This document shows, piece after piece, positions 15,501 through 26,845 of a DNA stretch of 45,036 bases. The notes beneath the pieces are model-generated. The model ran no database searches. It was not told the DNA's origin and was given only the letters and a program-made list of their open reading frames with translations. Every line of letters starts with the position of its first letter. Position 1 is the stretch's first letter. Source of the stretch: Minisyncoccia bacterium (GTDB lineage: Bacteria > Patescibacteriota > Minisyncoccia > Phycocordibacterales > UBA918). The translations under genes were made by a program, and so were the position numbers. The stretch spans positions 1 through 45,036 of the forward strand of contig JBGSVK010000088.1 of NCBI GenBank assembly GCA_041752975.1, in the 5' to 3' direction.

Positions 15501-18500
15501 CCTATACCGGTATTAGTTTTGATACTGCAGGAGCTGGTAATAATATTCCAAATGGAATTACCTATGCAGGTGGCTATTTCTGGGTCACAGATTGGGGAGA
15601 TGATAGGGTCTACCAATATACAGCTAGTGGAACTTATACAGGAAACTTCTTTGGGGACTCAAACACAATTAATGGTCCTACGGGTATTGTATACATTGAT
15701 GGTTATTTATGGGTGAATGGTTTTATAAATGTCAGGGCATATAAATTTAGTCTCGGACAACTTATTTCTGGTAATTTAACCGGTACAAGTGCTTTTAATA
15801 CCGTTGAGTTTGGTGATTCAAATCAAAAATTCATTATTACTCCATTAGGCACTACTGACTTTACAATCAAGGCAAATTCAGGCCCTGTAACTGCACCTAC
15901 AAGCACATTAACAATTAGTGGTAATTACACTAATAATAATTCAGATGGATTTATTCATAATTCCGGCACAACTACTTTTAATGGTTCTGTCAGTCAAATT
16001 CTCTCGGGAACAATGACTAACGTTTCTGCTTTTAATAATATCCTGTTCAGTGGTTCTGGTACTAAGACTTTCGCTAGTACTTCAGCTTCAACTACAAACT
16101 TTGTTGTGCAAAGTGGAAGTGGGGAAGTAATTGCTCCTTCGGCTTTAACTGTGTCCGGTAACTATTCTAATAACAGCACAACATCAATGTCAGGATCACG
16201 GTGGACAGCATACAGTGCAACTCAGGCTAATAGTTGGGGCTCATTAGCTTATGGTAACGGCAAATTTGTTGCTGTTTCATACAATGGAACAAATAGAGTT
16301 ATGTATTCAACTGACGGTATTACATGGGCGACCAGTACTGCCGCGCAAGCTAACTTATGGTTTGCTATAACTTACGGTAATGGCAAATTTGTCGCTGTTT
16401 CTGGTGACGGTACTAACCGTGTAATGTATTCAACTGACGGTATTACATGGGCGACCAGTACTGCCGCGCAAGCAAATCCATGGTATAGCGTCGCCTATGG
16501 TAACGGCAAATTTGTCGCTGTATCTTATAACGGTACTAACCGTGTAATGTATTCAACTGACGGTATTACATGGGCGACCAGTAGCGCTCCAGAAGCAAAC
16601 GCTTGGTACTCAGTCACTTACGGCAACGGTAAGTTTGTGGCCGTAGCTTGCGGAATTAATTCTACAACTTGTAATTTTACTGGTGGCGGTAGTCGTGTAA
16701 TGTCTTCAACTGATGGAATTAATTGGGTTGGTCACTCTGCTACTTCTGCGAGTGAATGGTACGCTGTGACCTACGGAAATGGGCTCTTTGTGGCAGTTGC
16801 AAGGTCCGGTTCTGATCTTATTATGACATCACCAGATGGTGCAAACTGGACTGCTCGAAGTGCTCCTGAGAGTAACTTCTGGTTGTCAGTCACCTATGGT
16901 AATGGCCTCTTTGTGGCTTTAGCTACTAATGGTACCAATCGTGTTATGACTTCACCAAACGGTATCACTTGGACCCCTTACATTGCAGCTGAAGATAATG
17001 CTTGGTATGACGTTGTCTATGGCAATGGTAAGTTTGTGGCGGTAGCAGGTAATGGCACCAACCGCGTCATGACCTCCGACGACACCACGGCCTTCTTCAA
17101 CAGTAGTGCCGACCAAACTATCTCTGGTAACCTAACTGGTGCCTCACAACTCCGTTCAGTTAACTTTGGTGGTTTAGGTACCAAGACTTTCTCTAGTAAC
17201 GCCTCTACTACCAACTTCTTTATCGCCACTTCGACCGCTACCGTCACGGCACCAACTATCCTCTCAGTCTCAGGTGATTTCACCAATCGCAGTAATTTCA
17301 ACGATAATAGTGGTACTGTCATTCTTTCTGGAGAAAACCAAACTGTCTTGGGTACTACCACCTTCCATAACCTCACTAAGTTTGCAACCGATAGAGCCAC
17401 TACCACCTTTGAAGCTGGTGCCTTATTCACTATCGAAAACAACTTCACTTTCTCTGGATATAATGCTACCAATACTCACGCTCTTCGCTCTAGTGTTGAC
17501 GGTACACAGTGGAAGATCGACCCACAAGGTACCCGCACCCTTTCATACCTAGACGTCAAAGATTCAAACAATATTAATGTCACAACCGTCAGTTGTGGTA
17601 CTGGCTGTATTGATGGTACCGGCAACACCAATTGGTCATTTGCTGGAGTAGGTTTTGACAACCTATCTTCAGGTGATAATTATCATTTCTATGTTGGACA
17701 AGGTACTACTACCCTAGATACTATTTTTATCACCTCAGAAGCCGCTGCCGCTACTGATCTCCGGCTCACCATCGCTACTACCACCACCAACTTCCGCTTT
17801 GATACCGGTACTACTAATCTGACTTTGACAGGAACTGGGGCTTCTAAAGTCAGTACTTCAGTGACTTATGAAAACGGTGGAGCAACTTTGGTTCTAAATG
17901 TTACCAATAATCTCAGTCTTGGCGATACCTTAGGGGTTAGTGGTATCAAGGTTGGAAGCTTTGCTAGTGTTAGTACAACTACTAGTGCGTTTACTCTTCA
18001 TACTGATGGAAACATAATCGGTGCTCCAGCAGCTACCGATAGTAAAACTATTCGTATTACTGGTCGACTAGCAGTTACTAACCACGCTTCAGGCCAAGTG
18101 GGTAATGAATTTAACTTCCAGAATAAAGTTGATAAACCAATCTTTGCTTTCAATCTGCAAGCTATAGGTGAGAACGCAACTATCACTGATATGGTCGTTA
18201 CTCTCAGTGGTGTCCAGGGCATTGATAGTTCAAATATCAGTGATTTCAAACTCTACCGAGACAACAACAATAATCAAACCTTAGACGGCCCTGACTTACT
18301 AATAGATGGCTCAGGTATCCTGACTGTTAATGGCCAACATGGTGCCATTACCTTCAGTACTGACTTCGTAGCTTCTTCTAGTGTTAACTACTTTGTGACC
18401 GCTGATATCAATTCAATCTCAGTTGGTGATGCTGTGGTCGTTAAGTTCCTTGCAAATGGTATTACCGCTCTTGGTGCTACATCACAGTATTCTCCAGTAG

Positions 18501-19159
18501 TTGTCGTTGATACGTCAGCTGTTCAACATGCTCGAGGTGGCAGTGGAGCTGGTGGTAGTAGTGCTCGCATTGGTGACGATGCTCCTCCGGGGGCGGGGGT
18601 AGTGACTGGTGGTGATGAAGGAGGAGGGGGAGAAGATGGAGCTGGAGAACCACAAGACGGAGCAAATATTGCCCCTGATAATGAATTCTTCCGCCCAACC
18701 ACTACTGGTAGTCCTGATAATGAATGGACTAATGGTGCAAACGCTCTCTTGTCTGATGGTACTTACGCTACAGCTGGTAACTCAAACCTCAAGCAAAGTT
18801 ACTCCAACTTCAACTTTGGTATTCCTACCAATAACACCATTCAAGGTATTGCCGTTAAAATAGACGCTTCTGGAACAACCCCGGCTGGAACCATCGATGT
18901 CTTGCTGTCTTGGGATGGTGGCGGTTCTTACACTGCAGCAAAAGCGACACCAACTCTCTCTGGTAGCGATGTTGTCTATACAGTCGGTGGACCTGGTGAT
19001 ACTTGGGGTCGAACATGGACAGCTTCAGAGTTTGGTTCACTCTTCCACTTACGAGTTTCAGCCCAGGTCTCTGCCAATAGTGTTCGCCTAGATGCTCTAG
19101 AGATTAGAGTCTATCACCAAGCTGGTGGCGGTGGTAGTGGTGGCGGTGGGGGGATTTAG
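521..19159 (+). CDS. Giant secreted or cell-surface mosaic protein (6,212 aa) with Asp-box-like beta-propeller arrays, LamG-like domains and NHL-like arrays
   Basis: Uninterrupted 18,639-nt ORF with a TAG stop. An RBS precedes the ATG. The N-terminal hydrophobic segment FLILSVVCLTLLFFTAVTF is followed by EANA|AE, which looks like a signal peptide. In-frame periodic repeats of 123-150 nt run throughout. There is no LPXTG motif and no C-terminal TM segment. Confidence 0.95.
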   Translation: MFFSESALKSIYTYIVYLTNKFLILSVVCLTLLFFTAVTFEANAAEIKQYDAGIVVYADGSAGIPKYKVFDDLTGLGAEQSATTVGGTAIEWIRVAASPVRDEWIIVTRDAGDRIAAQVCTGINDGISCGATTTISATAGTHGLQNFDVAYEQLSGHALIVYGTATADELRKIEWVNGAWTSDAAITTTKTSGTVEWVELTSQRGSDQIAIGYADSNDEVSAYRWSGTSAANEATAVITATASQADVRKFDISFEGISGDMIIASPLANAGTTAFGHMTSAGTWTIVANTEPDNITAFIDLQEQGPDDDVAMLAHGSTTANNPTEGYELNGATPNTTTTGMVDATVAVDTTTTVWGVNYMMTSVAYLSPTYYAVGVFSDVTGADDINWFTMNNAGVWTAQTDNTRTRGTIRFTSMFDYPNQNKVLLLSSDSNSDLWIDTNAGTTTGATAWVDRTSAGAVETALSSATTKVYDFAFRLSPAILGVLYTDNGITADTSGRTIKMAVGTSTLSVHTATTTTGGEWAFNNVLINATSGTPFTIWHDGTTNDATTIVSGYVNSFSTTSLASSSITNVPLYYGHTVVYGATSTASSTASTTSQVNFANFYNYDSTDDADILYTFQSTSTATTSSHLFIKQGEFIPTENLNITGDYTNQGRFGGAGENWLPRSADANAWYAVTYGNGIFVAVAGSGSNRVMTSTDGITWTPRSVAGNNDIWEDVTYGNGMFVAVGSGASGDHVMYSSDGTTWTTTTAAGDDDAWYEVTYGNGLFVAVSGSANGTTRVMTSPDGITWTAGSEAGNNDDWYSLVYGKGIFVAVGNSTGAGDSVMYSSDGITWATSTALGDNDLWLSVTYGNGLFVAVGNTGDRIMTSPDGITWTARSAAGDNDDWFGVTYGNGLFVATGYSGTDRVITSADGINWKLVSAVGNDDGWRDVTYGNGMFVAVGNSGDRVMTSKDSSLFFSTTSPQFLAGNLTGASQLRNVTFNGSTTNNTIAPTHGLLGYWNFENSEVNWTSASAGTVNDLSGNGYTGTMASMSSSTSPVIGKVGQAFDFDAVDDAVTIDAARQDDFNPGTGSFSVSVWAKPENINQTGAFVAKRRSGGNYERWWVGACITTACTAGKRIYFSNIGVTPGDARVLITNSDVVDGNWHHVVAVTDADSQTIKLYVDGVEPASTLTSTGAWPDITHTSPVQFGASTAGSFELNGAVDEVRYYNRALSAAEVTALYNEKPKVFSDNASTTDLTINSSIAVAPKALTVAGNYTNSDTFRAGLGTTTFSGNVPQTLSGNMTASSSFYNAHFLEAGTKKLLSNASTTNFFVASSSGDVVLPPAFDVSRDYTNNGVTTHAGAVWTARSVAGNNDSWRDITYANGLFVAVGNSGDRVITSTDGINWDVRTPPVSAGWYGVTYGNGLYVVTASGGEIITSPDGITWTQRTAPAGGAWLDVAYGNGTFVAGGWNACATACLMYSTDGINWATTTPPVNNSWYGVTYGGGLFVAVGYGIVTKSVITSPDGINWTARDIGANDGRWISVDYGNGMFVAVGGYLDNSQKVATSPDGINWTVRSVSGNNDNWWDVTFCDGLFVAVATSTTNGVFTSPDGINWREYPSVFTSISYQSDIACGNGIMVAVSSGDTNRVMTAHDTTTFFSGSTSQNISGNLTGASTFRDVVFNGTGSKTFASSSASTTSFTVASTSGEVITPQNLSVAGDYENRGSVVQAGRTWSVVSALGDNDTWRDVVYAQGLFVAISSGGDRIMTSPDGLIWTVRTVGTNNNSEGIAYGNGMFVVVGNAQSVVLTSPDGLTWSTSTAPSASGWNGIAYGNGLFVAVADTGTDRVMTSPDGVNWTARSAAGNDDYWYGVTYGNGLFVAVAYRTTADRIMTSPDGINWTVRSVGGNDDGWIQAAYGNGVYVAVAFTGNDRVAYSYDGLTWATTSVAGNDDSWWGVTYGNGLFVAVGTSTSHSVITSPDGVNWTAVSAAGDNDSWRFVTYGDGKFVAVGCHQQPCVTSTGSDRVMISYDTNTFFDGSNDQTISGDLTGDSLLRSVIFEEKGTKTFIDTASTTDFMVATSSGEVITSTNIAIAGDYENRGRVSHAGTVWATTSVAGNNDNWGDVIYAEDQFVAVGYSGDDRLMTSPDGLTWTVRTAPEANSWRGIAYGNGRYVAVSNTGTNRVIYSLDGINWATSSAAQANQWYAVTYGNGTFVAVSRDGTDRVMYSYNGINWATTSAAEVKEWWGITYGNGLFVAVTTTGGSNQVMTSPDGINWTARATTGIDGDWNAVTYGNGRFVAVSYNNDLVMWSDDGINWTASDVPNNDDWWDVTYGDGLFVAIGTSTAHSNLIMTSPDGITWTSREVPDGGESWYGIGYGNGRFVGVGYGGPSRVMTSSDTSTFFTSVNDQVISGNLTGASQLRAVNFEEKGSKTFEDNASTTNFTVGSASSTGEVIMPQNIDIAGDYANLGAVANFGVNWTTVTAAENDDNWGDVIYAEDQFVAVGYSGDDRLMTSPDGVNWTTVSVAGNNDGWNEITYGNGRFVAVSCGASCSTAGDVVMYSDDGVTWATTSAAGNNDDWYAVTYGNGVFVAGAIAGDTRVMNSTDGITWTPLSVLGDDDGWSAIVYGGGQFVAVARSGGNRIMTSPDGTNWTPQSALGDNDSWNSVTYGNGLYVASAFAGDHRLMTSPDGVNWTARYFPDSNNFTGSVRFLNGLFFAFNGNTARGHMTSPDGINWTVRSVAGDDDSWAHPAYGNGTLVYVSLGGSNRVMYSKVGTTTFNGSNAQDISGKLYGEGTFGNVQFTGEGAKTFSDRASTTNIYINNRATTTFASTLHVYDDFSASAGARISLADNATTTIKDQLLLAGTSTNLVYLVSETSGQASNLVLLGSSTITNTYVQDSNACGSIGGGITATSSTDGGNNTCWTFTSEGGAVNFYVTGILYEANRTTPYATSTTVKLNVATSTTNTFSTTTVATTGAFSFSVSAGTVATGTPITVFIDGSAVIKAVTVTKTANSGANTISNLPLYKNHVTIKNEATGTTTKASDLVHYDSVNDSDIQFTASSTLGTLNALGTTTLYVASGTTFHLDYPTTAHGFVVATTTSTVLASSTLTLTGNYANFGTFTAGTSTVYASSSAPTSAYTGFSFDTAASGNTTPQGIVSYGSYIYVTDNAGSQVYRYNSDGTYSGFTFDTAASGNSNPVGITVYNDYLYVVDLGDAEVYRYNLDGTYSGFSFDTAASGNALPYSITAYNDYFYVIDNTDDEVYRYNSDGTYSGFSFDTAASGNTSTFGITTYNGFLFSTDSTDTEVYIYTMTGAYTGVSFDIASSGNGTAYGITAHNGYFYIVDGADDEVYQYNVGQGFSGNMTGSSAFNDIVFTGSSGKDFVNNASTTGNFTISTSSGEVRAPLGLSIAGNYTNSTSTGFNANSGTTTFSGTGTQTIAGFATGTSAFDNVVFSGTGTKYFATSSSASTTNFVVNTGSGEVITSPALTVSGNYVNNSTTTMVGLNWVARSAAGNDDGWRGVTYGNGRFVAVSPGIDTVMTSPDGITWTAQTTAGITGQWWGVAYGEGLFVAVGVGSGADRLMTSPDGVNWTRRDIAGNDDNWRAVVYAQGQFVAVACGTNATTACSGAGDRVATSPDGITWTTFAIDPGNTDGWIGITYGNGLYVAVSAVGDQVMTSPDGVDWTAQTNPTGSWISVAYGNGNYVAVSYASTNRIMSSPDGVTWTSRLDSTGSKSLEYVIFANGTFVAVGNTVMTSPDGITWTEHTILRNNDAWRSMAYGNGRLVAVGIGGDRVMTLDDTSLIFSGNEDQTISGNLDGGSSFRSVSFTGSGIKTITNNASTTNFTIAAGTTVVAPVAVAIANNATNTGELITSAGDTWVSASGTEASIYYNVAFGEGIFVAVSSGGTKRVITSSDGINWTKRDAAEQNRWISVTYGDGKFVAVADSGTNRSMYSFDGITWATSSAAENNLWYGVTYGDGQFVAVSCSGTNRVMTSPDGISWSPQLAAEANCWTSVTYGGGQFVAVADSGTNRVMTSPDGINWSPQLAAEANSWNSISYGNGRFVSVAYSGTNRVMYSLDGITWATSSATQNIAWYGITYGNGMFLAVGTSTENNVMTSPDGITWTAYNGSENSVWWGAVYGNERFVVVGGSGSRAMASQEGRIYLNGSSAQTVTGTLTGTSRLANVTISNRVGTTTFGSALEVGTLNMPVIGSIAYLKSSATSTINNLNITGSSSQLTKLRSTTYGTQSSIDVVDSYDISYLDVKDSNACGSVNGWINAGDTSTDSGNNNCWFFFAGDGDTVTVTGVLYESDRITPYATSTLVKLNVATSTINTFSATTTAGTGAFSFSALISGNFATGTPVTIFTDGSAVIKAVTVTKSNGTTTLSSLPLYKDHITITNQGIGSTTKASDLVHYDSVTDSDIQFTASSTLGTLAVATGQTLYVASGTTFHLDYPTTAHTLEIATTSTFLASSTLSLSGNYQNNGTFYAGNSTTTFANNVEAQLIAGNLSGASTFNHLAFTSTSTQGSTDGLVGYWNFENNSTRWYTTTDGTFYDVSPYGNHGTDVAMFATTSVAGKIGQGITFDGVDDFIEVADDDSFTMGDNPVTIASWVKFTSAASTSYQFIVTQNNDSFELNKSSTNALRMEMICSNATARRANESVASLTQPDRWYHVVGIFTPTTGAFQFYVDGSSRAVTYIDAQSPCTIKDSSNLVWIGLRGGMFLKGSVDELRIYNRALDATEVAALYNEKPKIFNNDATANNFIVNSGIIVSPTNLNISGNYTNLGTYRGGISNTNFNGSGAQLLSGNMTESSTFASTTFSNTGTKTFADNASTTNFMIASSTTTVVAPSVLHVGGYYTNNGTFTNNSGTVLFGSEVTSIATYTGESFSTSGSGNANPTGSVIAEGYLWIADEVDDRIYKYNTDGTYTGVNFSTAGSGATNPHGLTYGDGYLWISDYVTSIVYQYTTAGTYTGFSFSITGAGAGGTPYGITFADGYLWIASDNQDDVYKFNTDGTYTGISFDTAGAGNNIPNGITYAGGYFWVTDWGDDRVYQYTASGTYTGNFFGDSNTINGPTGIVYIDGYLWVNGFINVRAYKFSLGQLISGNLTGTSAFNTVEFGDSNQKFIITPLGTTDFTIKANSGPVTAPTSTLTISGNYTNNNSDGFIHNSGTTTFNGSVSQILSGTMTNVSAFNNILFSGSGTKTFASTSASTTNFVVQSGSGEVIAPSALTVSGNYSNNSTTSMSGSRWTAYSATQANSWGSLAYGNGKFVAVSYNGTNRVMYSTDGITWATSTAAQANLWFAITYGNGKFVAVSGDGTNRVMYSTDGITWATSTAAQANPWYSVAYGNGKFVAVSYNGTNRVMYSTDGITWATSSAPEANAWYSVTYGNGKFVAVACGINSTTCNFTGGGSRVMSSTDGINWVGHSATSASEWYAVTYGNGLFVAVARSGSDLIMTSPDGANWTARSAPESNFWLSVTYGNGLFVALATNGTNRVMTSPNGITWTPYIAAEDNAWYDVVYGNGKFVAVAGNGTNRVMTSDDTTAFFNSSADQTISGNLTGASQLRSVNFGGLGTKTFSSNASTTNFFIATSTATVTAPTILSVSGDFTNRSNFNDNSGTVILSGENQTVLGTTTFHNLTKFATDRATTTFEAGALFTIENNFTFSGYNATNTHALRSSVDGTQWKIDPQGTRTLSYLDVKDSNNINVTTVSCGTGCIDGTGNTNWSFAGVGFDNLSSGDNYHFYVGQGTTTLDTIFITSEAAAATDLRLTIATTTTNFRFDTGTTNLTLTGTGASKVSTSVTYENGGATLVLNVTNNLSLGDTLGVSGIKVGSFASVSTTTSAFTLHTDGNIIGAPAATDSKTIRITGRLAVTNHASGQVGNEFNFQNKVDKPIFAFNLQAIGENATITDMVVTLSGVQGIDSSNISDFKLYRDNNNNQTLDGPDLLIDGSGILTVNGQHGAITFSTDFVASSSVNYFVTADINSISVGDAVVVKFLANGITALGATSQYSPVVVVDTSAVQHARGGSGAGGSSARIGDDAPPGAGVVTGGDEGGGGEDGAGEPQDGANIAPDNEFFRPTTTGSPDNEWTNGANALLSDGTYATAGNSNLKQSYSNFNFGIPTNNTIQGIAVKIDASGTTPAGTIDVLLSWDGGGSYTAAKATPTLSGSDVVYTVGGPGDTWGRTWTASEFGSLFHLRVSAQVSANSVRLDALEIRVYHQAGGGGSGGGGGI
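2501..3378 (+). repeat. Propeller array 1 of 8: seven tandem blade repeats with the (Y/F)GNGxFVAVG ... (M/I)TSxDGxxW signature
   Basis: I counted seven YG(N/K)G motifs, each followed by SxDGxxW. This is Asp-box-like but one residue shorter than the canonical BNR motif SxDxGxTW. The array spans about 293 aa. Confidence 0.8.
3500..4207 (+). other. LamG / concanavalin-A-like lectin domain, copy 1 (Laminin_G_3-like)
   Basis: The segment runs from HGLLGYWNFEN through FDFDAVDD, FSVSVWAKP and NWHHVVAV to GAVDEVRYYNRALSAAEVTALYNEKPKVF. This is the typical LamG_3 pattern, including the (V/I)DE(V/L)R(I/Y)YNRAL(S/T)xxE(I/V) ending. Confidence 0.75.
4550..5428 (+). repeat. Propeller array 2 of 8 (seven blades)
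   Basis: Seven (Y/F/C)(A/G/C)(N/G/D)G motifs alternate with SxDGI(N/T)W, from AVWTARSVAGNNDSW to NRVMTAHD. Confidence 0.8.
5660..6553 (+). repeat. Propeller array 3 of 8 (seven blades)
   Basis: Seven blades from RTWSVVSALGDNDTW to SDRVMISYD, with the same motif pair. Confidence 0.8.
6782..7654 (+). repeat. Propeller array 4 of 8 (seven blades)
   Basis: Seven blades from TVWATTSVAGNNDNW to SRVMTSSD. The first blade shares a 92-nt identical tract with the first blade of array 5. Confidence 0.8.
7889..8782 (+). repeat. Propeller array 5 of 8 (seven blades)
   Basis: Seven blades from VNWTTVTAAENDDNW to NRVMYSKV. Confidence 0.8.
9257..9739 (+). repeat. About 160-aa Thr-rich beta-sandwich-like module (VTGILYE...LYVASGTTFHLDYPTTAH), copy 1
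   Basis: This aligns along its full length with 13358-13837 at high protein similarity and roughly three-quarters nucleotide identity by eye. A more distant copy lies at about 1958-2390 (ILGVLYTDNG...). No family assignment is possible from sequence alone. Confidence 0.7.
9878..10537 (+). repeat. NHL-like array 1: five tandem 44-aa repeats (132-nt period)
   Basis: Five copies of Y(S/T)GFSFDTAASGNxxPxGITxYNxYxYVxDxxDxEVYRYNxDGT, spanning exactly 660 nt. The P-x-G-I ... Y-V-x-D ... V-Y-x-Y pattern matches the NHL/YVTN-type blade logic. Confidence 0.7.
10973..11857 (+). repeat. Propeller array 6 of 8 (seven blades)
   Basis: Seven blades from LNWVARSAAGNDDGW to GDRVMTLDD. Confidence 0.8.
12086..12940 (+). 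repeat. Propeller array 7 of 8 (seven blades; strict 123-nt period in its centre)
   Basis: Seven blades from DTWVSASGTEASIYY to SRAMASQE. Positions 12428-12491 and 12551-12614 differ at a single base. Confidence 0.8.
13358..13837 (+). repeat. About 160-aa Thr-rich module, copy 2 (VTGVLYESDR...LYVASGTTFHLDYPTTAH)
   Basis: Paralogous to 9257-9739. Shared strings include TPYATST.VKLNVATST.NTFS, GTP(I/V)T(V/I)F(I/T)DGSAVIKAVTVTK and KASDLVHYDSV(N/T)DSDIQFTASSTLGTL. Confidence 0.7.
14048..14719 (+). other. LamG / concanavalin-A-like lectin domain, copy 2
   Basis: The segment runs from DGLVGYWNFENN through ITFDGVDDFIEV and RWYHVVGIF to GSVDELRIYNRALDATEVAALYNEKPKIF. It is paralogous to 3500-4207. 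Confidence 0.75.
15104..15760 (+). repeat. NHL-like array 2: five tandem repeats of about 44 aa
   Basis: Five copies of YTGxxFSTxGSGxxNPxG(I/L)T(Y/F)xDGYLW(I/V)xDxxxDx(I/V)Y(K/Q)(Y/F)xTxGT. Confidence 0.7.
16196..17083 (+). repeat. Propeller array 8 of 8 (seven blades; three near-identical 123-nt units)
   Basis: Seven blades from SRWTAYSATQANSW to NRVMTSDD. Exact repeats: 16301-16350 = 16424-16473 and 16407-16460 = 16530-16583. Confidence 0.85.
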
Positions 19160-19256
19160 GAGGAGAAAAACTTAAAGTTATGCACAAAAATGATTAATAA
19201 TAAACAAAAAAAGCTTTATTTTTGGTAGAATTAAGGCATTAAAAGAATATAAACAT

Positions 19257-19958
19257 ATGAACACAAAACATTATTTTACAGTGGCTACACAAGCATTGAT
19301 TGCTTCCACGTTAATTTTGGCGATGTTGGGGGCAGGCTACTTGTTTGCAGAGCCACAAGTGGGTAGGGCACAAGCCACAAGTACTTTTACCATCTCTCAA
19401 TTAATTACCGGAGAAATTTCCTTCTTGGTTTATGGTGCCACCACCACTTTGTCAGGACCTTTAAATGGTATTACTGGAGGTACAGCTAACGGTTCAACAA
19501 GTGTAAAGGTACAAACCAACAGTGCGACAGGCTATGTGATGGATATTAAATTTGCCACTACCTCAACCGGTAATGCTATGCAAGCTTCAAATAATCCAAC
19601 AGCTTCAATTCATGACTTACCAGCCTCAAGTACTGAGCCTCATTACTTATTCTCAACCGCTAGTACCGCTGCAGTATTTGGCTATACCATCTCGGCTCCA
19701 CAAGCTTCAGATATTGCGCAAGCTTTTCTAGATGATAGTTCTGGTGCCTGTAATCAGCCTGGTGGAGATGCTAATGAGGATACTTGTTGGATGGAGCCAA
19801 GTTTTGCAAATTATCGTGTAGTTGATAGAGATAGTGCAGCGACTATTGGAGCTACTACCACGATTCATTTCCGTGTTCATGTACCAAACAACCCAGCTCC
19901 TGGCCTTGTAGCAGATACTTATGTTGCTACTGCCACCTTGACGGCAGCCAACCAATAG
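19257..19958 (+). CDS. Secreted 233-aa protein, candidate degenerate WxL-domain-like surface protein (paralogue of 21057..21833)
   Basis: It has an N-terminal signal-like segment (ALIASTLILAMLGAGYLFA). It shares LNGITGGTANGSTSVKVQTNSATGYVMDIKF and the C-terminal GATTTIHFRVHV...ADTYVATATLTA with the 258-aa paralogue. The family call is pattern recognition only. Confidence 0.85.
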   Translation: MNTKHYFTVATQALIASTLILAMLGAGYLFAEPQVGRAQATSTFTISQLITGEISFLVYGATTTLSGPLNGITGGTANGSTSVKVQTNSATGYVMDIKFATTSTGNAMQASNNPTASIHDLPASSTEPHYLFSTASTAAVFGYTISAPQASDIAQAFLDDSSGACNQPGGDANEDTCWMEPSFANYRVVDRDSAATIGATTTIHFRVHVPNNPAPGLVADTYVATATLTAANQ

Positions 19959-19973
19959 AGTTACTGTAGTCGG

Positions 19974-21053
19974 ATGACTATGACTACATTTTGTGTTCGA
20001 AAATTTGTTTATATTACCTTTTTGATTGTTAGTGGCCTGCTTCTGGCGACTCTAACTGTCAATGCTCAAGACAACACCCAAGCCTCTGGCGAGGGTGTTG
20101 TTTCTGCCTCTAGTACTCAAGAAGTATCTACCAGTACGGCAGTGTTGCCGGTAGATGACAGATCTTGGATGAAGATAGAAAAGCTGACTGGGACTGTAGA
20201 TCAAGGTGACTTTGTAGTCGGACCGGGCAGGGCAGAAATTGAAATCAAGCCAGGTCAAACTATTACTTATGATATCTCAATTACCAACCGTATCAGTAAT
20301 GAGCGTCAATTTCAGTTGGCTGTAGAGGATATTTCTGGTTCAGAAGATGGAAGTAAGTCTGTGATAATGCTGGGTGATGAACGCGGGCCATACAGTATCA
20401 AAGATTATATTTCTTTCCCAAAGAATACTTTTAATTTGGATTTAGGAGAGAGAGCAAGGATTCCTGTGACTATTAGTATTCCTAAAGATGCTGAGCCTGG
20501 TGGTTATTACGGAAGTATTCTAGTTTCTACAATTAGATTGGGTAGTGATAATGTGCCGGTAGGAGGAGCTAGTTCACCAATTATTGCTCGTATTGGTACC
20601 TTGTTTTTTATTACCGTTCCTGGCGATGTGAAGAGAGGAGGTGAATTTAAAGACTTTAGTCTAATTAATGAAAAACTATGGTACGAAAGTGGTCCAATAG
20701 ACATGGCTTTGTTATATGAAAATACTGGCTCCATCCATTTAAATCCCTATGGAGAGATTAGAATCAAGAATCTCTTTGATGAAGAAGTAGGTTTTGTCGA
20801 GCTGGAACCTTGGTTTTCATTACCTGGCTCTATGCGCTCGCGTGAGGTAAGTTGGGATAGGGAACTTCTCTTGGGGCGCTACACAGTCACCGCCTCAATT
20901 AATCGTGGTTATGACGATATAGTTGACGAAAAGACTTTAACTTTTTGGGTTTTGCCTTGGAAATTTATTGGTGGAATCTTTGCTGTTCTATTTATCATTA
21001 TTTTCTGTATTCGCTTTTTCTTCAGAACGTTTGAATTTAAACGTCGAGGATAA
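19974..21053 (+). CDS. Signal peptide plus two beta-sandwich-like halves plus C-terminal TM anchor; DUF916/DUF3324 (CscA-type)-like surface protein
   Basis: The signal peptide ends LTVNA|QD. Diagnostic strings are IPVTISIPKDAEPGGYYGSILVST and LPGSMRSREVSWDRELLLGRYTVTASI. The C-terminal TM segment is WKFIGGIFAVLFIIIFCIRFFF with a basic tail ending KRRG. The gene starts 15 nt after the previous stop. Confidence 0.85.
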   Translation: MTMTTFCVRKFVYITFLIVSGLLLATLTVNAQDNTQASGEGVVSASSTQEVSTSTAVLPVDDRSWMKIEKLTGTVDQGDFVVGPGRAEIEIKPGQTITYDISITNRISNERQFQLAVEDISGSEDGSKSVIMLGDERGPYSIKDYISFPKNTFNLDLGERARIPVTISIPKDAEPGGYYGSILVSTIRLGSDNVPVGGASSPIIARIGTLFFITVPGDVKRGGEFKDFSLINEKLWYESGPIDMALLYENTGSIHLNPYGEIRIKNLFDEEVGFVELEPWFSLPGSMRSREVSWDRELLLGRYTVTASINRGYDDIVDEKTLTFWVLPWKFIGGIFAVLFIIIFCIRFFFRTFEFKRRG

Positions 21054-21056
21054 ACT

Positions 21057-21833
21057 ATGTTTTTAAGTTCTTTCTACAAAACCTTCGTTCAGGCATTAAT
21101 TTTGACAGCGATTTTTTTGGTAACACTGGCTATTACTGGTGCTCAAGTGAGGACGAGTCCAAGCTACCAGCTACAGAGCGATAGTGTTAACTTTGGTGGT
21201 GGTCTTTCTACCTCTACCAACTATGGTTTAGAGAGTACGGCGGGTGAAGTAGCTACTGGAGATTCAGAAAGCTCTACCTATCGTTTGCGAGCTGGCTATC
21301 AGCAGATGCAGGAAGTTTATTTGAGTATGACAGAAGCATTGGACGTTGTTATGTCGCCAAATCTGGGGGGTTTAACAGGGGGTACTGCTAATGGTTCAAC
21401 AAGTGTATCGGTTTTGACTGATAGTCCTAGTGGCTATCAGCTTACTATTCAGGCTGAATCAGCGCCTGCTATGCAGATGATTTCGCTTCTTGAATCAATT
21501 TCAGATTATAGTCCTATTGATTCTCCTGAAGCGGATTATACTTTTACTACGTCTGCTAGTGATGCACACTTTGGTTATTCTCCAGAGGGAGTAGATATTG
21601 TCACTTACTTTAAAGACGATGGAATTTCTATTTGTGGTTCAGGGCTTCTTGATACAGCGCTTACTTGCTGGGACGGTCTTACTACTTCTGAGGTAATAAT
21701 TGCTCAAGGTCCCGCCAATCAACCAGATGGTGCAACAACAACAATTAATTTTAGAGTTGGGGTTGGAGCAAATGCCGGGGTAATTGCTGGCACTTATGTC
21801 GCTACTACTACTTTGACAGCAATTCCAATATGA
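21057..21833 (+). CDS. Secreted 258-aa paralogue of 19257..19958 (degenerate WxL-like candidate)
   Basis: It has a signal-like N-terminus and three S-x-(N/S/T)-Y-x-L repeats (SPSYQL, STNYGL, SSTYRL). Shared strings are LGGLTGGTANGSTSVSVLTDSPSGYQLTIQA and the C-terminal GATTTINFRVGV...AGTYVATTTLTA. It starts 3 nt after the previous stop and ends in TGA. Confidence 0.85.
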   Translation: MFLSSFYKTFVQALILTAIFLVTLAITGAQVRTSPSYQLQSDSVNFGGGLSTSTNYGLESTAGEVATGDSESSTYRLRAGYQQMQEVYLSMTEALDVVMSPNLGGLTGGTANGSTSVSVLTDSPSGYQLTIQAESAPAMQMISLLESISDYSPIDSPEADYTFTTSASDAHFGYSPEGVDIVTYFKDDGISICGSGLLDTALTCWDGLTTSEVIIAQGPANQPDGATTTINFRVGVGANAGVIAGTYVATTTLTAIPI

Positions 21834-23533
21834 AAATAAATATTATTAATTTAATCCTGACTTCTCTAACGATTTTTTTTTCAATTTGCGTACATTTAGT
21901 ACGGTTCTTACAAAAGAACCGTTTTATGTATAATCCCATCTCCAAGGGCAATTTCTTAAGACGAACAGGAGTTGCTCTGTTTATGGTCGGCTTGTTTTTG
22001 GTGCCCAACATAATTTGGGCACAAATTGAGAGTGGTGACTTTACTATCAGCGCTCAAATTGTTAATGACTTAGTTCCTCCCACTACTCCAACAATGTTAT
22101 CGGTCGTGCCTATTGCGTATGATCAGATTGATGTCACTTGGAGTGCATCAACTGATAACTTTTTATTAGGTGGTTATGTATTATTGAGAGACGGAAATCC
22201 GGTCGCCACTACGACATTGACAACTTATCTAGATACTGGACTTACGGCTTCAACCACATATTCTTATGAGGTCTATGCGTTTGATGTTTTTTATAACTTA
22301 TCTACGACTTCAAATTCATTATCTACCACAACCCCTAATCCACCACCAGCAACACCAACACCAACTTCAACTTCACAAACAAATACCGCTACTCGGGTTT
22401 TAGCCTTGCAAGATTTAAGTATTGAGACTGAGATTAATACGGCGGTATTTTCTTGGCAAACAAATAATCGATCACGATTTGTTCTGCGGTGGGGTAGAAA
22501 TGATGCTTATGACGAAGGTTACATAATGAACGACGCTTATAGAACTAGTCATCAGACATTAGTTGGAGAATTGGAACCAGGCACTATTTATCTCTATGAA
22601 TTAATCGGTTATGGCACGAACGGAATTCCGATTACTCTAAAGAAAGGTCAGTTTAAAACTAAAGATAGTATAAGTCAGTCTCCTTCTAACGTTCAAAATT
22701 TACAAGTAATAGTTCAGGAAAATGATATTACTTTGAGTTGGGAAAAACCAATTGGTTTTGAAGGTTCAACCATTAGAGTGGTGAGAAGTCATCTTGGTTA
22801 TCCTTCAGATCCTTACGATGGTGCAATTGTTTACGAAGGCAAAGGTAATTCTTTTTACGATAAAAGTTCGCTAGAGGTTTATGGTAAACAATATTACACA
22901 GTCTTTGTTTATGCAGATGACGGCGCCGTTTCTTCTGGTGCTGTGGTTAGAGCTGGTCGTAAGTATGTAGCTACAGCTACCTCTACCCCAGGAGATAATG
23001 AAGGAAATTTAGAAGAAGAGCTAATTGAAATCCCTGATTTTGGTTTTTCAGTAGAGAATATCTTGGTTAAGCAAGGAGATAGTTTTTTTGATTTTAAGAG
23101 CGAAAGAATATATCTCGATAATAGTAAATCTTTTATAATTAGCATTCCATATTCTGCACTACCTAAACACCTAAAATCTATCATCGTCACTCTACTTGAT
23201 CCGACTGATATGAATCGTAGTTATTCTTTTTTGCTTAGGATAAATAAAGACAGAACTGCGTACGAAGCAACTATTGCGCCAATAAAATTATACGGCCCGT
23301 CTCGTTTACAGATAGAGATATACGATTATGAAAGAGAGATTGTGGGTCGCTACCGAAAGCATATCGATTTCATCGCATCAGAAACAGAATTAGTTGAAGA
23401 AGTGGTTTTCCCCGATAAAATTGTGGGTATCTTCGAAAGGATTATGTCACCGCTATTTTGGATATTTATTATTATCTTATTAATTATTTTCTTACTTTAC
23501 CGTCGCTCAAAGGAGACTGAGGATAATCACTAG
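21830..23533 (+). CDS. Membrane-anchored protein with three fibronectin type III-like domains, a Pro/Thr linker and a C-terminal TM anchor
   Basis: FN3-like segments are PTTPTMLSVVPIAYDQIDVTWSAS...YSYEVYAFD, LSIETEINTAVFSWQTN...YLYELIGYG and PSNVQNLQVIVQENDITLSWEKP...YYTVFVYADD. The linker is PNPPPATPTPTSTS. The C-terminal TM segment is LFWIFIIILLIIFLLYRR. The start is ambiguous: ATG 21830 overlaps the upstream TGA (ATGA), while ATG 21926 gives a cleaner signal peptide (MYNPISKGNFLRRTGVALFMVGLFLVPNIIWA|Q). Confidence 0.85.
   Translation: MKINIINLILTSLTIFFSICVHLVRFLQKNRFMYNPISKGNFLRRTGVALFMVGLFLVPNIIWAQIESGDFTISAQIVNDLVPPTTPTMLSVVPIAYDQIDVTWSASTDNFLLGGYVLLRDGNPVATTTLTTYLDTGLTASTTYSYEVYAFDVFYNLSTTSNSLSTTTPNPPPATPTPTSTSQTNTATRVLALQDLSIETEINTAVFSWQTNNRSRFVLRWGRNDAYDEGYIMNDAYRTSHQTLVGELEPGTIYLYELIGYGTNGIPITLKKGQFKTKDSISQSPSNVQNLQVIVQENDITLSWEKPIGFEGSTIRVVRSHLGYPSDPYDGAIVYEGKGNSFYDKSSLEVYGKQYYTVFVYADDGAVSSGAVVRAGRKYVATATSTPGDNEGNLEEELIEIPDFGFSVENILVKQGDSFFDFKSERIYLDNSKSFIISIPYSALPKHLKSIIVTLLDPTDMNRSYSFLLRINKDRTAYEATIAPIKLYGPSRLQIEIYDYEREIVGRYRKHIDFIASETELVEEVVFPDKIVGIFERIMSPLFWIFIIILLIIFLLYRRSKETEDNH
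21901..21922 (+). promoter_or_regulatory. Perfect 9-bp stem / 4-nt loop hairpin (acggttctt acaa aagaaccgt) immediately before the alternative ATG at 21926
   Basis: Read directly. It is followed by ttt-ATG. It could be a weak attenuator between the paralogue gene and the FN3 gene, or simply lie inside the N-terminal extension if 21830 is the real start. Confidence 0.35.
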
Positions 23534-23594: not shown

Positions 23595-24620
23595 ATGGTT
23601 CGTGTTGCAATTAATGGTTTTGGTCGAATAGGAAGAACATTTTTTCGCCTAGCTTATAATAACCCTGACTTTGAAGTTGTGGCGGTTAATGACTTGGGTG
23701 TTTTAGAAAACCTAGCTTATTTACTAGAGTACGATTCAGTTTATGGACGTAGTCCATTTTCTGTCGAAGCAAAAGATGGGGGACTTTTTATTCAAGGTAA
23801 GAAAGTAGCTTTTACTCAAGAGAAAGAACCAAACAAGCTTCCTTGGAAAGATTTGGCAATTGACGTAGTAGTTGAATCAACTGGCTTCTTTACAAGTTAC
23901 GAAGGCTCCAAACTTCATCTTGATGCCGGAGCTAAAAGGGTAGTGGTATCTGCTCCAGTCAAGGGAGACCCATCTGCTGTGGGTGTAAATGGAGCGACCG
24001 TGTTGATGGGAGTAAATCATGAATTACTTAAGACTTGTCAGGTTTCATCAAATGCTTCTTGTACAACAAATGCCACTAGTCCCTTAGTTGCTATCTTAAA
24101 AGAAGCAATTGGGATTGATAAAGCTGTTTTGAATACTGTTCATGCTTACACAGCGTCTCAAGCCCTCGTAGACAGTCCCAACAAGAAGGATATGCGGGAA
24201 GGTAGAGCCGCTGCTCTTAACATCGTTCCTAGTACAACCGGAGCGGCAATTGCGACCACTCTCGCTCATCCTGAACTAAAAGATAAGTTTGATGGTATTG
24301 CTATGCGGGTACCAGTGCCAGTCGGTTCAATAGTCGATGTTACCTTTATCGCCAAGCGCGATACTACTGTAGAAGAAGTTAATCAAGCTCTCCTAAAAGC
24401 TTCGACTTTACCTCGTTGGAAAAATCTTTTTGCAGTTACAACCGAGCAAATTGTCTCAACAGATATTATTGGCTCAAGAGTTGGTTCAATTGCAGATTTA
24501 TCTTTCACAAAAGTTGTGGGTGGTAACTTGGTTAAAGTATTGGCTTGGTACGATAATGAAACTAGCTACACCCAGACACTCGTTGAACACGTAAAAGAAG
24601 TATCCAAGCACGTTGGTTAA
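23595..24620 (+). CDS. gap: Glyceraldehyde-3-phosphate dehydrogenase (type I)
   Basis: Contains MVRVAINGFGRIGR, the catalytic SNASCTTN motif and the C-terminal WYDNETSY. Confidence 0.95.
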   Translation: MVRVAINGFGRIGRTFFRLAYNNPDFEVVAVNDLGVLENLAYLLEYDSVYGRSPFSVEAKDGGLFIQGKKVAFTQEKEPNKLPWKDLAIDVVVESTGFFTSYEGSKLHLDAGAKRVVVSAPVKGDPSAVGVNGATVLMGVNHELLKTCQVSSNASCTTNATSPLVAILKEAIGIDKAVLNTVHAYTASQALVDSPNKKDMREGRAAALNIVPSTTGAAIATTLAHPELKDKFDGIAMRVPVPVGSIVDVTFIAKRDTTVEEVNQALLKASTLPRWKNLFAVTTEQIVSTDIIGSRVGSIADLSFTKVVGGNLVKVLAWYDNETSYTQTLVEHVKEVSKHVG

Positions 24621-24625
24621 ACAAC

Positions 24626-25114
24626 ATGTCACTATCAAGCAAAATTAAAACTATTCATCTGGCCAGTGACCATGCTGGTTTTGAGCACAAAGAAGGAGTT
24701 AGAGAATGGCTATCGAGCTTGGGTTATGACGTCGTTGATCATGGCGCAAAAGTATATGATGAAGGAGATGATTTTCCAGATTTTATTAAATTGGCGTCCG
24801 AAGCCGTAAATCAAAATCCAGAAGATTCTTGTGGAGTAATTTTTGGTGGTTCAGGACAAGGAGAAGCAATGGTTGCCAATAGTTATCCAAAAGTCAGAGC
24901 CACTGTCTATTATGGTGGTAACAAGGAAATAATTAGACTCTCAAAAGAACATAATGATGCGAATATTTTATCAATTGGAGCAAGATTTGTTTCGTTTGAT
25001 GAAACTAAGGAAGTAATATGGGATTGGCTTAATGCGAGTGTACTTGATGATGACAAATATCAACGGCGCAATCAAAAAATTCAAACCATTAATCAGGAAA
25101 TTTACCGCTTATGA
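24626..25114 (+). CDS. rpiB: Ribose-5-phosphate isomerase B (RpiB/LacA/LacB family)
   Basis: Contains IHLASDHAGFEHKE and GVIFGGSGQGEAMVANS. At 162 aa the length is typical. The TGA stop overlaps the next ATG (ATGA). Confidence 0.9.
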   Translation: MSLSSKIKTIHLASDHAGFEHKEGVREWLSSLGYDVVDHGAKVYDEGDDFPDFIKLASEAVNQNPEDSCGVIFGGSGQGEAMVANSYPKVRATVYYGGNKEIIRLSKEHNDANILSIGARFVSFDETKEVIWDWLNASVLDDDKYQRRNQKIQTINQEIYRL

Positions 25115-25758
25115 TTCCAATTGTTCCAGCCATAATTCCAAAGTCCTCTCACCATCTAGTAGATACTTTGAGTCGATTAACTTTTTCTCCTGAGATACAT
25201 GTTGATGTAGTTGATGGAAAATTTGTACCTTTCACTTCGTGGCCATATGAGCCAAAAGGGGAACCAATTGAAGTCCGTAAAACAACTGACAAGTTTACAC
25301 TGGAGGTTGACCTAATGGTAGAAAATCCGCTTGTATCTGCTGATGCATGGCTAATGTCTGGTGCTGATATGTTGGTCTTTCATGTTGAGACTATTAACTT
25401 AGATGCTTTTGCGAGGTTTGTTGATTCAACAAGAATCTCTATTGGAGTCTGTGCTCTAAATGACACACCGCTTTCTGTTTTGGAACCTTATGTTGAAATA
25501 GCTGACTATATTCAACTGATGGGCATTGCCAAAATTGGTAGCCAAGGACAACCTTTTGACGAGAGGGTATTGGAAAGGATTTCTGAACTAAAAATAAAAT
25601 TCCCCAGACACCCGATAACAATCGATGGTAGTGTTAATAAAGAGACAATCGCCAAGATAGCTAAAGCCGGTGCAGATAGATTTATTTGTGGCTCAGCAAT
25701 TGTTGGTGCCAGTGACCCTAATTTGGCCCACCTTGAACTTTCTGCATTAATTAATTAA
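25111..25758 (+). CDS. rpe: Ribulose-phosphate 3-epimerase family protein (divergent)
   Basis: Contains IHVDVVDGKFVP, LVFHVE and ITIDGSVNKETIAKIAKAGADRFICGSAIV. The length is typical of the TIM-barrel Rpe family and the gene is translationally coupled to rpiB. Confidence 0.75.
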   Translation: MIPIVPAIIPKSSHHLVDTLSRLTFSPEIHVDVVDGKFVPFTSWPYEPKGEPIEVRKTTDKFTLEVDLMVENPLVSADAWLMSGADMLVFHVETINLDAFARFVDSTRISIGVCALNDTPLSVLEPYVEIADYIQLMGIAKIGSQGQPFDERVLERISELKIKFPRHPITIDGSVNKETIAKIAKAGADRFICGSAIVGASDPNLAHLELSALIN

Positions 25759-25927
25759 CTGAAGTTCTACCTACAATACTTTTGCGACAGGGTTTTAGCT
25801 TTTGTTATTTTTATTTGGATAGTTACAAAAGTATTATGGAGAATTTTGTAGCTCAATAAATTTTAATTATGGGGATGAAGCAACTACAATCTCTTCGGTA
25901 CTGCTGATATACTATAGTCGATTCAAT

Positions 25928-26824
25928 ATGCATTATTTAACCTCAAAAGAAGTAAATTTTTTAGAATTAAAGGCAAATCAAATTCGCCAAAGTATTATTG
26001 AAATGCTAGTAGCGGCTGGTAGTGGGCATACCGCTGGTCCGCTGGGAATGGCTGATATTTTTACATTACTTTACTTCAAGGTCTTGCAACATGATCCCAA
26101 GAATCCTCTATGGGCAGACCGAGATAGATTAATTCTATCCAATGGTCATATCTGTCCTGTACTGTATGCAACACTTGCTCATGCTGGTTATTTTCCAGTT
26201 GAAGAATTACTGACACTTAGAAAATTTGGTTCAAGATTACAAGGACATCCGCATCGAACAGCTTTGCCAGGATTGGAAACTAGTTCAGGTCCGCTTGGTT
26301 CAGGACTTTCTCAGGCGGTAGGTATGGCCTTGGCGGAAAGAATAGATAATCCATATTCTTCAAAATACATCTATTGTTTAACTGGAGATGGTGAATTAAA
26401 CGAGGGTCAGATTTGGGAGGCAGCACTACAGGCCGGAAAGGAAAAATTGCATAATTTAATAATGATTATTGATCGTAACGGGATTCAGATTGATGGCTAT
26501 ACTAAAGACGTGATGCCACTTGAACCTTTGGCAGAAAAATTTGAAGCCTTTAATTTTGATGTTCAAGAAGTAGATGGTCACAATATCCGCGCCATGAATG
26601 ATGCTATTGGTAAGGCACAAGCTGTCTATAGCCAGCCTTCAGTAATTATTGCGCATACAATTGCTTCTAAAGGTGTCGATGTTTTTGAAAGAGATTTTAG
26701 GTGGCACGGTAATCCTCCAGGGAAAGGTCCTGAGGACAAAGTTCCTAAGACTAAGCAAGCTGAAGTGGCGCTTGAAAAACTTCGTACCTTGGCCGGCTTA
26801 ATCGCTAAAGAAGATTTATCTTAG
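25928..26824 (+). CDS. Transketolase, N-terminal (TPP-binding) subunit of a split enzyme
   Basis: Contains GSGHTAGPLGMADIF, DRDRLILSNGH and GDGELNEGQIWEA. Confidence 0.92.
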   Translation: MHYLTSKEVNFLELKANQIRQSIIEMLVAAGSGHTAGPLGMADIFTLLYFKVLQHDPKNPLWADRDRLILSNGHICPVLYATLAHAGYFPVEELLTLRKFGSRLQGHPHRTALPGLETSSGPLGSGLSQAVGMALAERIDNPYSSKYIYCLTGDGELNEGQIWEAALQAGKEKLHNLIMIIDRNGIQIDGYTKDVMPLEPLAEKFEAFNFDVQEVDGHNIRAMNDAIGKAQAVYSQPSVIIAHTIASKGVDVFERDFRWHGNPPGKGPEDKVPKTKQAEVALEKLRTLAGLIAKEDLS

Positions 26825-26845
26825 TAAAATGACAAACTTCTAATT

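Follow-up and report, generated by a model that had tools for sequence, protein, structure and literature searches.

Donor-strand exchange between Ig-like pilins underlies the filaments of Ca. Mycosynbacter amalyticus, which were solved by cryo-electron microscopy (cryo-EM) (Troman et al., bioRxiv 10.64898/2026.03.03.709456). The components of this system (Pam) include the tip pilin PamT, the PapD-like chaperones PamC and PamD, which keep a C-terminal transmembrane (TM) helix, and PamR, an RbmA-like FnIII anchor that has an additional strand at its N-terminus and a TM helix at its C-terminus. The same preprint describes an associated tail-fibre-like protein and places these systems mainly in Saccharimonadia and Microgenomatia. 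The Csc/WxL clusters of Firmicutes are recognised by a minimum of one WxLIP plus two proteins of the WxL type within a few genes (Siezen 2006; Hassan 2023). The role initially suggested for these clusters was in carbohydrate utilisation (PMC1534035). In AlphaFold2 (AF2) models, Hassan et al. (PMC10599100) found a strand of DUF916 inserted into the WxL domain, which in mechanistic terms is donor-strand complementation. Here we analysed a four-gene cassette, P1 to P4, located behind a giant gene in a 45,036-nucleotide stretch of a Minisyncoccia bacterium (contig JBGSVK010000088.1, hereafter the window). The initial annotation had compared this cassette to a Csc/WxL locus. Judged from genes and models, the cassette is probably a compact, Paceibacteria-wide variant of the chaperone-assisted, usher-less Pam-type fibre or strand-complementation system of the candidate phyla radiation (CPR).

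The ORF (open reading frame) list shows four plus-strand ORFs downstream of a 6212-aa ORF:

521-19159, + strand, giant secreted protein of 6212 aa with signal peptide, propeller-like repeats and LamG-like modules
19257-19958, + strand, P1, ORF of 233 aa
19974-21053, + strand, P2, longest ORF, 359 aa
21057-21833, + strand, P3, ORF of 258 aa
21830-23533, + strand, P4, longest ORF of 567 aa; probable gene 21926-23533 of 535 aa

The ORF coordinates confirm the gaps of 15 nt between P1 and P2 and of 3 nt between P2 and P3 that had been noted initially. An N-terminal hydrophobic, signal-like segment is present in all five proteins, the giant included, and a C-terminal one in P2 and P4 only.

A scan of species-representative genomes gave 67 loci, all of them in Patescibacteria (Paceibacteria, Nomurabacteria, Kaiserbacteria, Parcubacteria). 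Wherever the contig extends far enough, the genes P1-P2-P3-P4-GAPDH follow one another in this order on a single strand, a few nucleotides apart, GAPDH adjoining the cassette in nearly all 67. For P2 and for P3 alike, the relatives number more than 1500 (clusters at 90% identity), all from CPR/Patescibacteria where named. The four-gene cassette is a real conserved unit. Its host is a CPR bacterium and the system therefore lies outside the Firmicutes, as the initial annotation had supposed. One metagenome-assembled genome (CAZWXM01) contains two differing P1-P2-P3 fragments (L043 and L044), reflecting either two cassette copies or strain heterogeneity in the bin.

In the AF2 model of P2 (pLDDT, the model's confidence score, 80), the signal helix is connected by a disordered linker to two beta-sandwich (Ig-like) domains, and the C-terminus forms a TM helix:

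20172-20537, + strand, domain 1 of P2 in the AF2 model
20592-20951, + strand, domain 2 of P2 in the AF2 model
about 20958-21026, + strand, TM helix of P2 in the AF2 model

The C-terminal helix spans residues 329-358 and the hydrophobic segment residues 324-355, followed by a basic tail. Pfam family PF06030 (WxLIP_PGBD, formerly DUF916) scored 25.7 bits on P2, just below its gathering score of 27.3, and matched 27 of the 29 members of the P2 family. When the family profile was compared to the PDB, the sole significant sequence match was EfmWxLIP1 (E=1.8e-5). We also built alignments of Firmicutes WxLIP and WxL proteins from nine plasmid loci, the WxL set comprising 12 proteins. Against the DUF916 part, hhalign gave the P2 N-domain a probability of 97.7% (E=2e-12). 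The C-domain reached a probability of 1.1% against the DUF3324 half, and no Pfam match to DUF3324 was found in the P2 family. Of the DUF916+DUF3324 architecture first assigned to the 359-aa protein, the DUF916 half, the signal-like helix, the two beta-sandwiches and the C-terminal TM helix with basic tail are therefore retained, whereas DUF3324 is undetectable by sequence. At the level of structure, the top Foldseek matches of P2 were 9i25_C and 9i1y, WxLIP from E. faecium, solved both on its own and bound to a WxL protein (E=2e-11). The alignment to the solved WxLIP spans 272 columns and includes both domains. RbmA came next, then many chaperone-usher chaperones (CfaA, CsuC, EcpB, FimC, Caf1M, DraB) with target TM-scores of about 0.5. 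Overall, profiles and models show that P2 is remotely homologous to the DUF916 domain that Firmicutes WxLIP/CscA proteins carry. We propose that it acts as a strand-donating chaperone, WxLIP/DUF916-like as well as PapD-like. It fits the published description of PamC and PamD in fold and topology.

The proteins on either side of P2 are indeed paralogous (BLASTP E=2e-24; hhalign E=5e-36), and the conserved blocks quoted from them in the initial annotation are present. The paralogy of P1 and P3 covers an Ig-like domain, some 160 residues long, in which two Cys and the C-terminal strand are conserved. In P1 this strand reads TYVATATLTA. The proposed correspondence of these blocks with the WxL motifs had to be abandoned. 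Pfam WxL matched neither P1 nor P3 nor any of the 32 P3-family members, hhalign of P1 and P3 against the 12 Firmicutes WxL proteins gave probabilities of 0.5-0.7%, and the W-x-L motif is absent from both sequences. No WxL chain was found among the top 50 Foldseek matches of the P3 model. With Pfam scans, hhalign, PDB profile search and fold search all negative, a WxL identity of P1 and P3 was rejected.

P3 did match the NCBIfam model NF058579 ('CPR-type pilus protein PamT'; E=3.8e-12), as did 32 of 32 P3-family members (best E=1.6e-13). P3 scored 46 bits as compared to an equivalog cut-off of 240, and aligned to model positions 7-129 of 241, that is, to the N-terminal half only. By sequence, P3 is a distant relative of PamT, not an equivalog. 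Two relatives of P3 weakly matched the Pam pilin C-domain model NF058581 (Pam_pilin_C), and P1 matched no Pam and no WxL model. The top of the Foldseek list of P3 was mostly made of chaperone-usher pilin domains (FimF/G, CfaB, the PapG pilin domain, FimA), each non-significant (best E=0.013) and obtained with an AF2 model of pLDDT only 67. The initial annotation had held that a strong match to a pilin or chaperone family would speak against its Csc/WxL proposal. Such a relation is seen in part, P3 being PamT-related and P2 also matching chaperone-usher chaperones.

The part of P3 that aligns to the PamT model includes a segment at its N-terminus:

21141-21314, + strand, N-terminal motif of P3, residues 29-86 (58 residues), three [ST]x[NS]Yx[LI] units, ending in AGYQQM

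No other part of P3 is as well conserved over the 63 species compared, but the monomer AF2 model shows this motif as disordered. We propose that it is a donated segment, either a linker or a donor strand. An exhaustive HMMER search found it in 385 representative clusters, and architecture classes were assigned to the best 150 representatives. Among these, 104 were P3-like, 23 were P4-type anchors carrying the motif at their own N-terminus and 13 were P2-P3 fusions; several of the motif-bearing P3 variants carry inserted lectin-like domains. In some P3-type pilins of 465-617 aa (L015, L046; P0269, P0294, P0450, P0460, P0497), an inserted LamG or Laminin_G_3-like domain separates the motif from the Ig-like domain; these recall the two-domain tip adhesins FimH and PapG. 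In P0296, a jelly-roll N-terminal domain is followed by the motif and the Ig-like domain, which is the plan of PamA/B (N-terminal domain, linker, C-terminal domain). The corresponding cassette, P1-P2-P0296-P4 (locus L077), is otherwise identical and has no upstream giant. As a route to a genuine pam operon, the motif-bearing proteins were examined for a true PamT orthologue; none was found, the best score being at most 55 bits.

In the P2-P3 fusions (P0251, P0265, P0268, P0299, P0303, P0340 and others), the TM helix of the chaperone runs straight into the signal peptide of the pilin, and the products are probably cut by signal peptidase. Motif-bearing proteins of about 520-550 aa were first read as PamA-type pilins; their sequences show that they are such fusions. 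Their occurrence, 13 times in the 150 representatives, provides Rosetta-stone evidence for a partnership of P2 and P3.

In P4, a signal peptide and a conserved N-terminal strand (DFTISAQIV) are followed by one or more FN3 domains and a C-terminal domain that is also conserved; a TM helix and a basic tail close the protein. Three FN3 domains had been assigned to it. One passes Pfam (fn3, E=2.7e-7) and two more are plausible from the conservation pattern. P4 resembles the PamR anchor in plan, as PamR is described, with its FN3 domain, TM helix and N-terminal strand, though P4 is larger. P1 has a short N-terminal strand as well (TFTISQLI) and is devoid of the first two units of the P3 motif. Indeed, P1, P4 and the third unit of P3 display a common N-terminal strand pattern, [ST]xx[FY]x[ILV][RKS]. 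Within genomes, the strands of P1 and P4 were identical at 3.61 of 12 positions, more than in all 5000 permutations (3.03 ± 0.12), a modest effect in a comparison where phylogeny is not controlled.

Overall, the matches of P3 and its family to PamT, the fold of P2, the pilin-rich fold list of P3, the conserved but disordered motif, the fusions, the shared strands, the PamR-like plan of P4, the constant gene order and the size of the P2 and P3 families all support a Pam-type system. Homologies, folds, topology features, synteny and fusions are the observed elements of this reading, whereas strand donation, the order of subunits, the choice between polymer and 1:1 complex and any tie to the giant are proposed ones. 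We infer the following scheme. Sec would export all four products. P2 would remain on the outer face of the membrane, held there by its C-terminal helix. It would act like PamC/PamD, WxLIP or a PapD-type chaperone and lend a beta-strand, thereby holding the incomplete Ig-like domains of P1 and P3. P3, and perhaps P1, would then insert its conserved N-terminal segment into the next subunit, giving either a head-to-tail fibre or a short stoichiometric stalk. The related N-terminal strand of P4 would cap the proximal end, with the FN3 stalk and the TM helix tying the structure to the membrane. A lectin-like adhesive module would sit on the pilin, as in other genomes, or, less certainly, come from the adjoining large secreted protein.

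Compared to Pam, the cassette is likewise CPR-restricted. It likewise encodes Ig-like pilin-type subunits that Sec would export, with P3 a distant relative of PamT, a two-Ig-domain protein of chaperone type retaining its C-terminal TM helix (P2) and a putative FN3 anchor, P4, that has a TM helix at the C-terminus and a strand at the N-terminus. In both cases usher, sortase and ATPase are lacking and a large fibre-like or adhesin gene lies nearby. In contrast to the long Pam operon, the cassette has four genes only. It adjoins GAPDH and pentose-phosphate genes whereas Pam adjoins ATP synthase, it occurs in Paceibacteria rather than mainly in Saccharimonadia and Microgenomatia, and its anchor exceeds the two-FnIII PamR in size.

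Several points weigh against this interpretation. Neither a filament nor a complex is on record for this lineage. The PamT match of P3 is far below the cut-off and confined to half of the model, P1, P2 and P4 match no Pam model, and no PamA/PamB-type two-domain major pilin was found among the ORFs of the cassette or of the window. According to the Pam preprint, PamT has no linker strand, yet it is to the N-terminal motif of P3 that the PamT model aligns. The pilin-like Foldseek matches of P3 are individually non-significant and come from a model of low pLDDT, and the co-variation of the P1 and P4 strands has no phylogeny control. RbmA, to which the PamR anchor is structurally analogous, is likewise among the matches of P2 (Foldseek E=1e-9, low TM-scores), and the fold alone therefore does not fully part a chaperone role from an anchor role. 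Finally, the P2-P3 fusions favour roughly equimolar amounts of P2 and P3. With equimolar synthesis, a long homopolymer is a poorer fit than a stoichiometric complex.

Chaperone-usher pili (Pap, Fim, CFA/I, Csu) offer a further comparison. The fold of P2 resembles their two-domain chaperones and that of P3 their pilin domains, and the conserved N- and C-terminal strands of the subunits are those needed for donor-strand exchange. CPR bacteria are monoderm. Unlike chaperone-usher pili, the cassette has no outer membrane and no usher to work with, P2 is membrane-tethered, no sequence similarity is detectable and the element donated by P3 would be a three-unit segment, not one short strand. No further large beta-barrel-type gene that could encode an usher was found in the cassette or in the 67 loci. 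The LPxTG motif is absent from the giant and from P1 to P4, and no sortase-like ORF lies next to the cassette among the ORFs of the window. Usher-type and sortase-type pilus systems were excluded on these grounds.

The gene upstream of the cassette raises another question. The giant has a single hydrophobic segment, at the N-terminus, and neither LPxTG nor any membrane or wall anchor. It contains many copies of a 'W..V.YGNG.FVAVG...R.MTS.DG..WT' unit (Pfam EPTP-like, propeller-type), with interspersed LamG-like modules (Pfam Laminin_G) and NHL-like 'YRYNSDGTYSGFSFDTAASGN' repeats, an architecture typical of a modular CPR adhesin. Its C-terminal part is as follows:

18068-19159, + strand, C-terminal region of the giant, about the last 350-360 aa, jelly-roll-like, tail ...LDALEIRVYHQAGGGGSGGGGGI; poly-Gly at 19124-19156

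The cassette might specifically dock or assemble the giant, which would then be the tip adhesin or the cargo of the P1-P4 structure; we regard this as a tentative idea that is somewhat doubtful. A large, secreted, anchor-less protein stands directly upstream of P1 in most loci. In about 30 of them its C-terminus is 35-62% identical to that of the giant and ends with the same near-invariant tail (consensus LDA[LI][EQ]VRVYHQAGGGGxGGGGxI-COOH). This tail is not a GlyGly-CTERM/rhombosortase signal because no TM segment follows it; possible roles are a tag for sorting or processing and a flexible tether. A jelly-roll of the type found at the C-terminus of the giant is fused to the P3-type pilins P0296 and P0281, and in L077 the fusion coincides with the lack of an upstream giant. 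This suggests a shared structure. The Pam preprint, too, links a 'tail fibre-like protein' to pam operons. On the other hand, the upstream protein differs between loci. In about a dozen of them it is tail-fibre-like, unrelated to the giant and Pro/Glu-rich in its tail, and several others carry a small ORF only, so that the association first proposed between cassette and giant holds for part of the loci. The C-terminus of the giant has no profile similarity to P1, P3, P4 or WxL in hhalign comparisons, and no copy of the P3 motif is found in the giant. The spacers between giant and P1, from 97 to almost 700 nt, permit separate transcription, and the fused jelly-roll may be a mere adhesive passenger, not a docking domain. 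Because the upstream gene varies between genomes, the link of the cassette to the giant is only suggestive.

The alternative upstream proteins (L007, L034, L038, L045, L064) start with a conserved INYQGKLT...GEMTPRKILGTVPAAF domain and have a Pro/Glu-rich end. P0360 joins a motif-P4 unit to a protein of this kind and has a tail-fibre-like C-terminal region. These proteins may correspond to the 'tail fibre-like protein' of the Pam preprint. Loci without a giant often have an ORF of 245-290 aa before P1 (L077, 5289-6158; L017, L030, L032, L033, L035) with a conserved C-terminal '...F.V.VP[IV]...' tail, the L077 copy having a helix-turn-helix-like N-terminus. This ORF may encode a regulator or an extra component.

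A Csc/WxL-type non-covalent complex, in which P2 would act as the WxLIP and stabilise P1 and P3 at about 1:1 on the cell wall, with P4 as CscD and no fibre, appears unlikely. In Csc/WxL clusters, CscA is the WxLIP, CscB and CscC are WxL proteins and CscD is an LPXTG protein. The homology of P2 to DUF916, the WxLIP structures as its top matches and the common plan of signal peptide, two Ig-like domains and TM helix speak for such a complex, and so do the predicted insertion of a WxLIP strand into WxL (PMC10599100) and the 1:1 stoichiometry implied by the P2-P3 fusions. The layout is alike as well, with a small protein on either side of P2, sizes almost identical to those in Firmicutes loci, and an anchored protein and a large adhesin nearby. 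In E. faecium pEfm12493 the order is LPXTG protein, WxL (232 aa), WxLIP (340 aa) and WxL (237 aa), which mirrors the 233-359-258 arrangement plus anchored protein. However, P1 and P3 are not WxL domains (Pfam 0/32, hhalign below 1%, no W-x-L motif), and no DUF3324 can be detected in the second domain of P2. LPXTG protein and sortase are lacking, the anchor being a TM helix where CscD has LPXTG, and the phylum is different. Moreover, P3 is related to a pilin of a filament solved by cryo-EM. The Csc/WxL complex and the Pam-type system may also be one ancestral mechanism.

That the four genes are merely syntenic and encode unrelated exported proteins, for example carbohydrate-binding or cell-wall proteins, without joint assembly, would suit the generic nature of Ig-like and FN3 folds, the sugar-metabolism genes around the cassette and the original tie of Csc clusters to carbohydrate utilisation (PMC1534035), but is very improbable given the invariant order and near-zero spacing over 67 species-level loci, the recurrent P2-P3 and motif-P4 fusions and the N-terminal strand common to P1, P3 and P4.

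The expression signals and the surroundings of the cassette were also examined:

19160-19256, + strand, spacer between giant and P1, AT-rich
21901-21922, + strand, RNA hairpin, dG -15.9 kcal/mol, z=-5.27, 0/200 shuffles fold as well
25928-26824 and 26846-27835, transketolase in two ORFs, identified by eye

In the alignment, the start Met of P4 homologues falls near residue 43 of the window P4. Together with the strong hairpin located just before the ATG at 21926, this indicates that P4 probably starts at this ATG and is 535 aa long, after a 92-nt spacer. The ATGA overlap of P3 and P4 reported initially applies to the longest P4 ORF only and is probably unused. The hairpin has a perfect 9-bp stem followed by UUUAUG and lies inside a window-specific insertion of about 92 nt that separates P3 from the likely start of P4. 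A role as attenuator or as mRNA-stabilising element behind the pilin gene P3 is possible. For P2, a start at 19980 is probable, given that the gene call in the database has 357 aa. The giant-P1 spacer contains neither a terminator-like site nor significant RNA structure (z=-1.3 as compared to shuffles), in line with the lack of a hairpin terminator behind the giant ORF noted at first. An extended -10-like element, TGGTAGAAT, was spotted by eye at 19223-19231, 26 nt upstream of the P1 start, and because of it the cassette may have its own promoter instead of being co-transcribed with the giant gene. Within the cassette, promoter-like and terminator-like sites are no commoner than in shuffled sequence, and the P1-P2 hairpin is not significant (z=-1.1). 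Directly downstream (23595-27835) lie GAPDH and then, by eye, RpiB, a ribulose-phosphate-epimerase-like gene and the split transketolase. The rest of the window consists of housekeeping genes of even composition. The cassette belongs to the chromosomal core, not to an island.

The homology of P2 to DUF916 would provide the first sequence-level bridge between Pam-type systems and the long-enigmatic Csc/WxL clusters of lactobacilli and enterococci, which until now have been treated as separate systems. A DUF916/WxL-CPR link was not found in the literature searched, and the Pam preprint names neither WxL/DUF916 nor Paceibacteria. Csc/WxL clusters, Pam pili and the present cassette could conceivably be three branches of one ancient monoderm strand-complementation system, a speculative proposal. 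In such a system, a membrane-tethered two-Ig-domain chaperone (DUF916/WxLIP, PamC/D, P2) would complete and hand over incomplete beta-sandwich subunits. WxL proteins would then be pilin-like subunits and not mere peptidoglycan binders. The cassette would come close to the ancestral form at its most minimal, and its portable donor module of three strands would serve to attach lectin domains, anchors or giant adhesins to the fibre. If the bridge holds, knowledge could be transferred both ways, enterococcal virulence loci included.

Paceibacteria (Parcubacteria) belong to those CPR bacteria that are most abundant and, at the same time, least understood. The present reading would extend Pam-type assembly past the classes originally reported, in a simpler four-gene form. 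Its location in the core chromosome of every related genome examined makes the cassette a prime candidate for the basic attachment apparatus of Paceibacteria.

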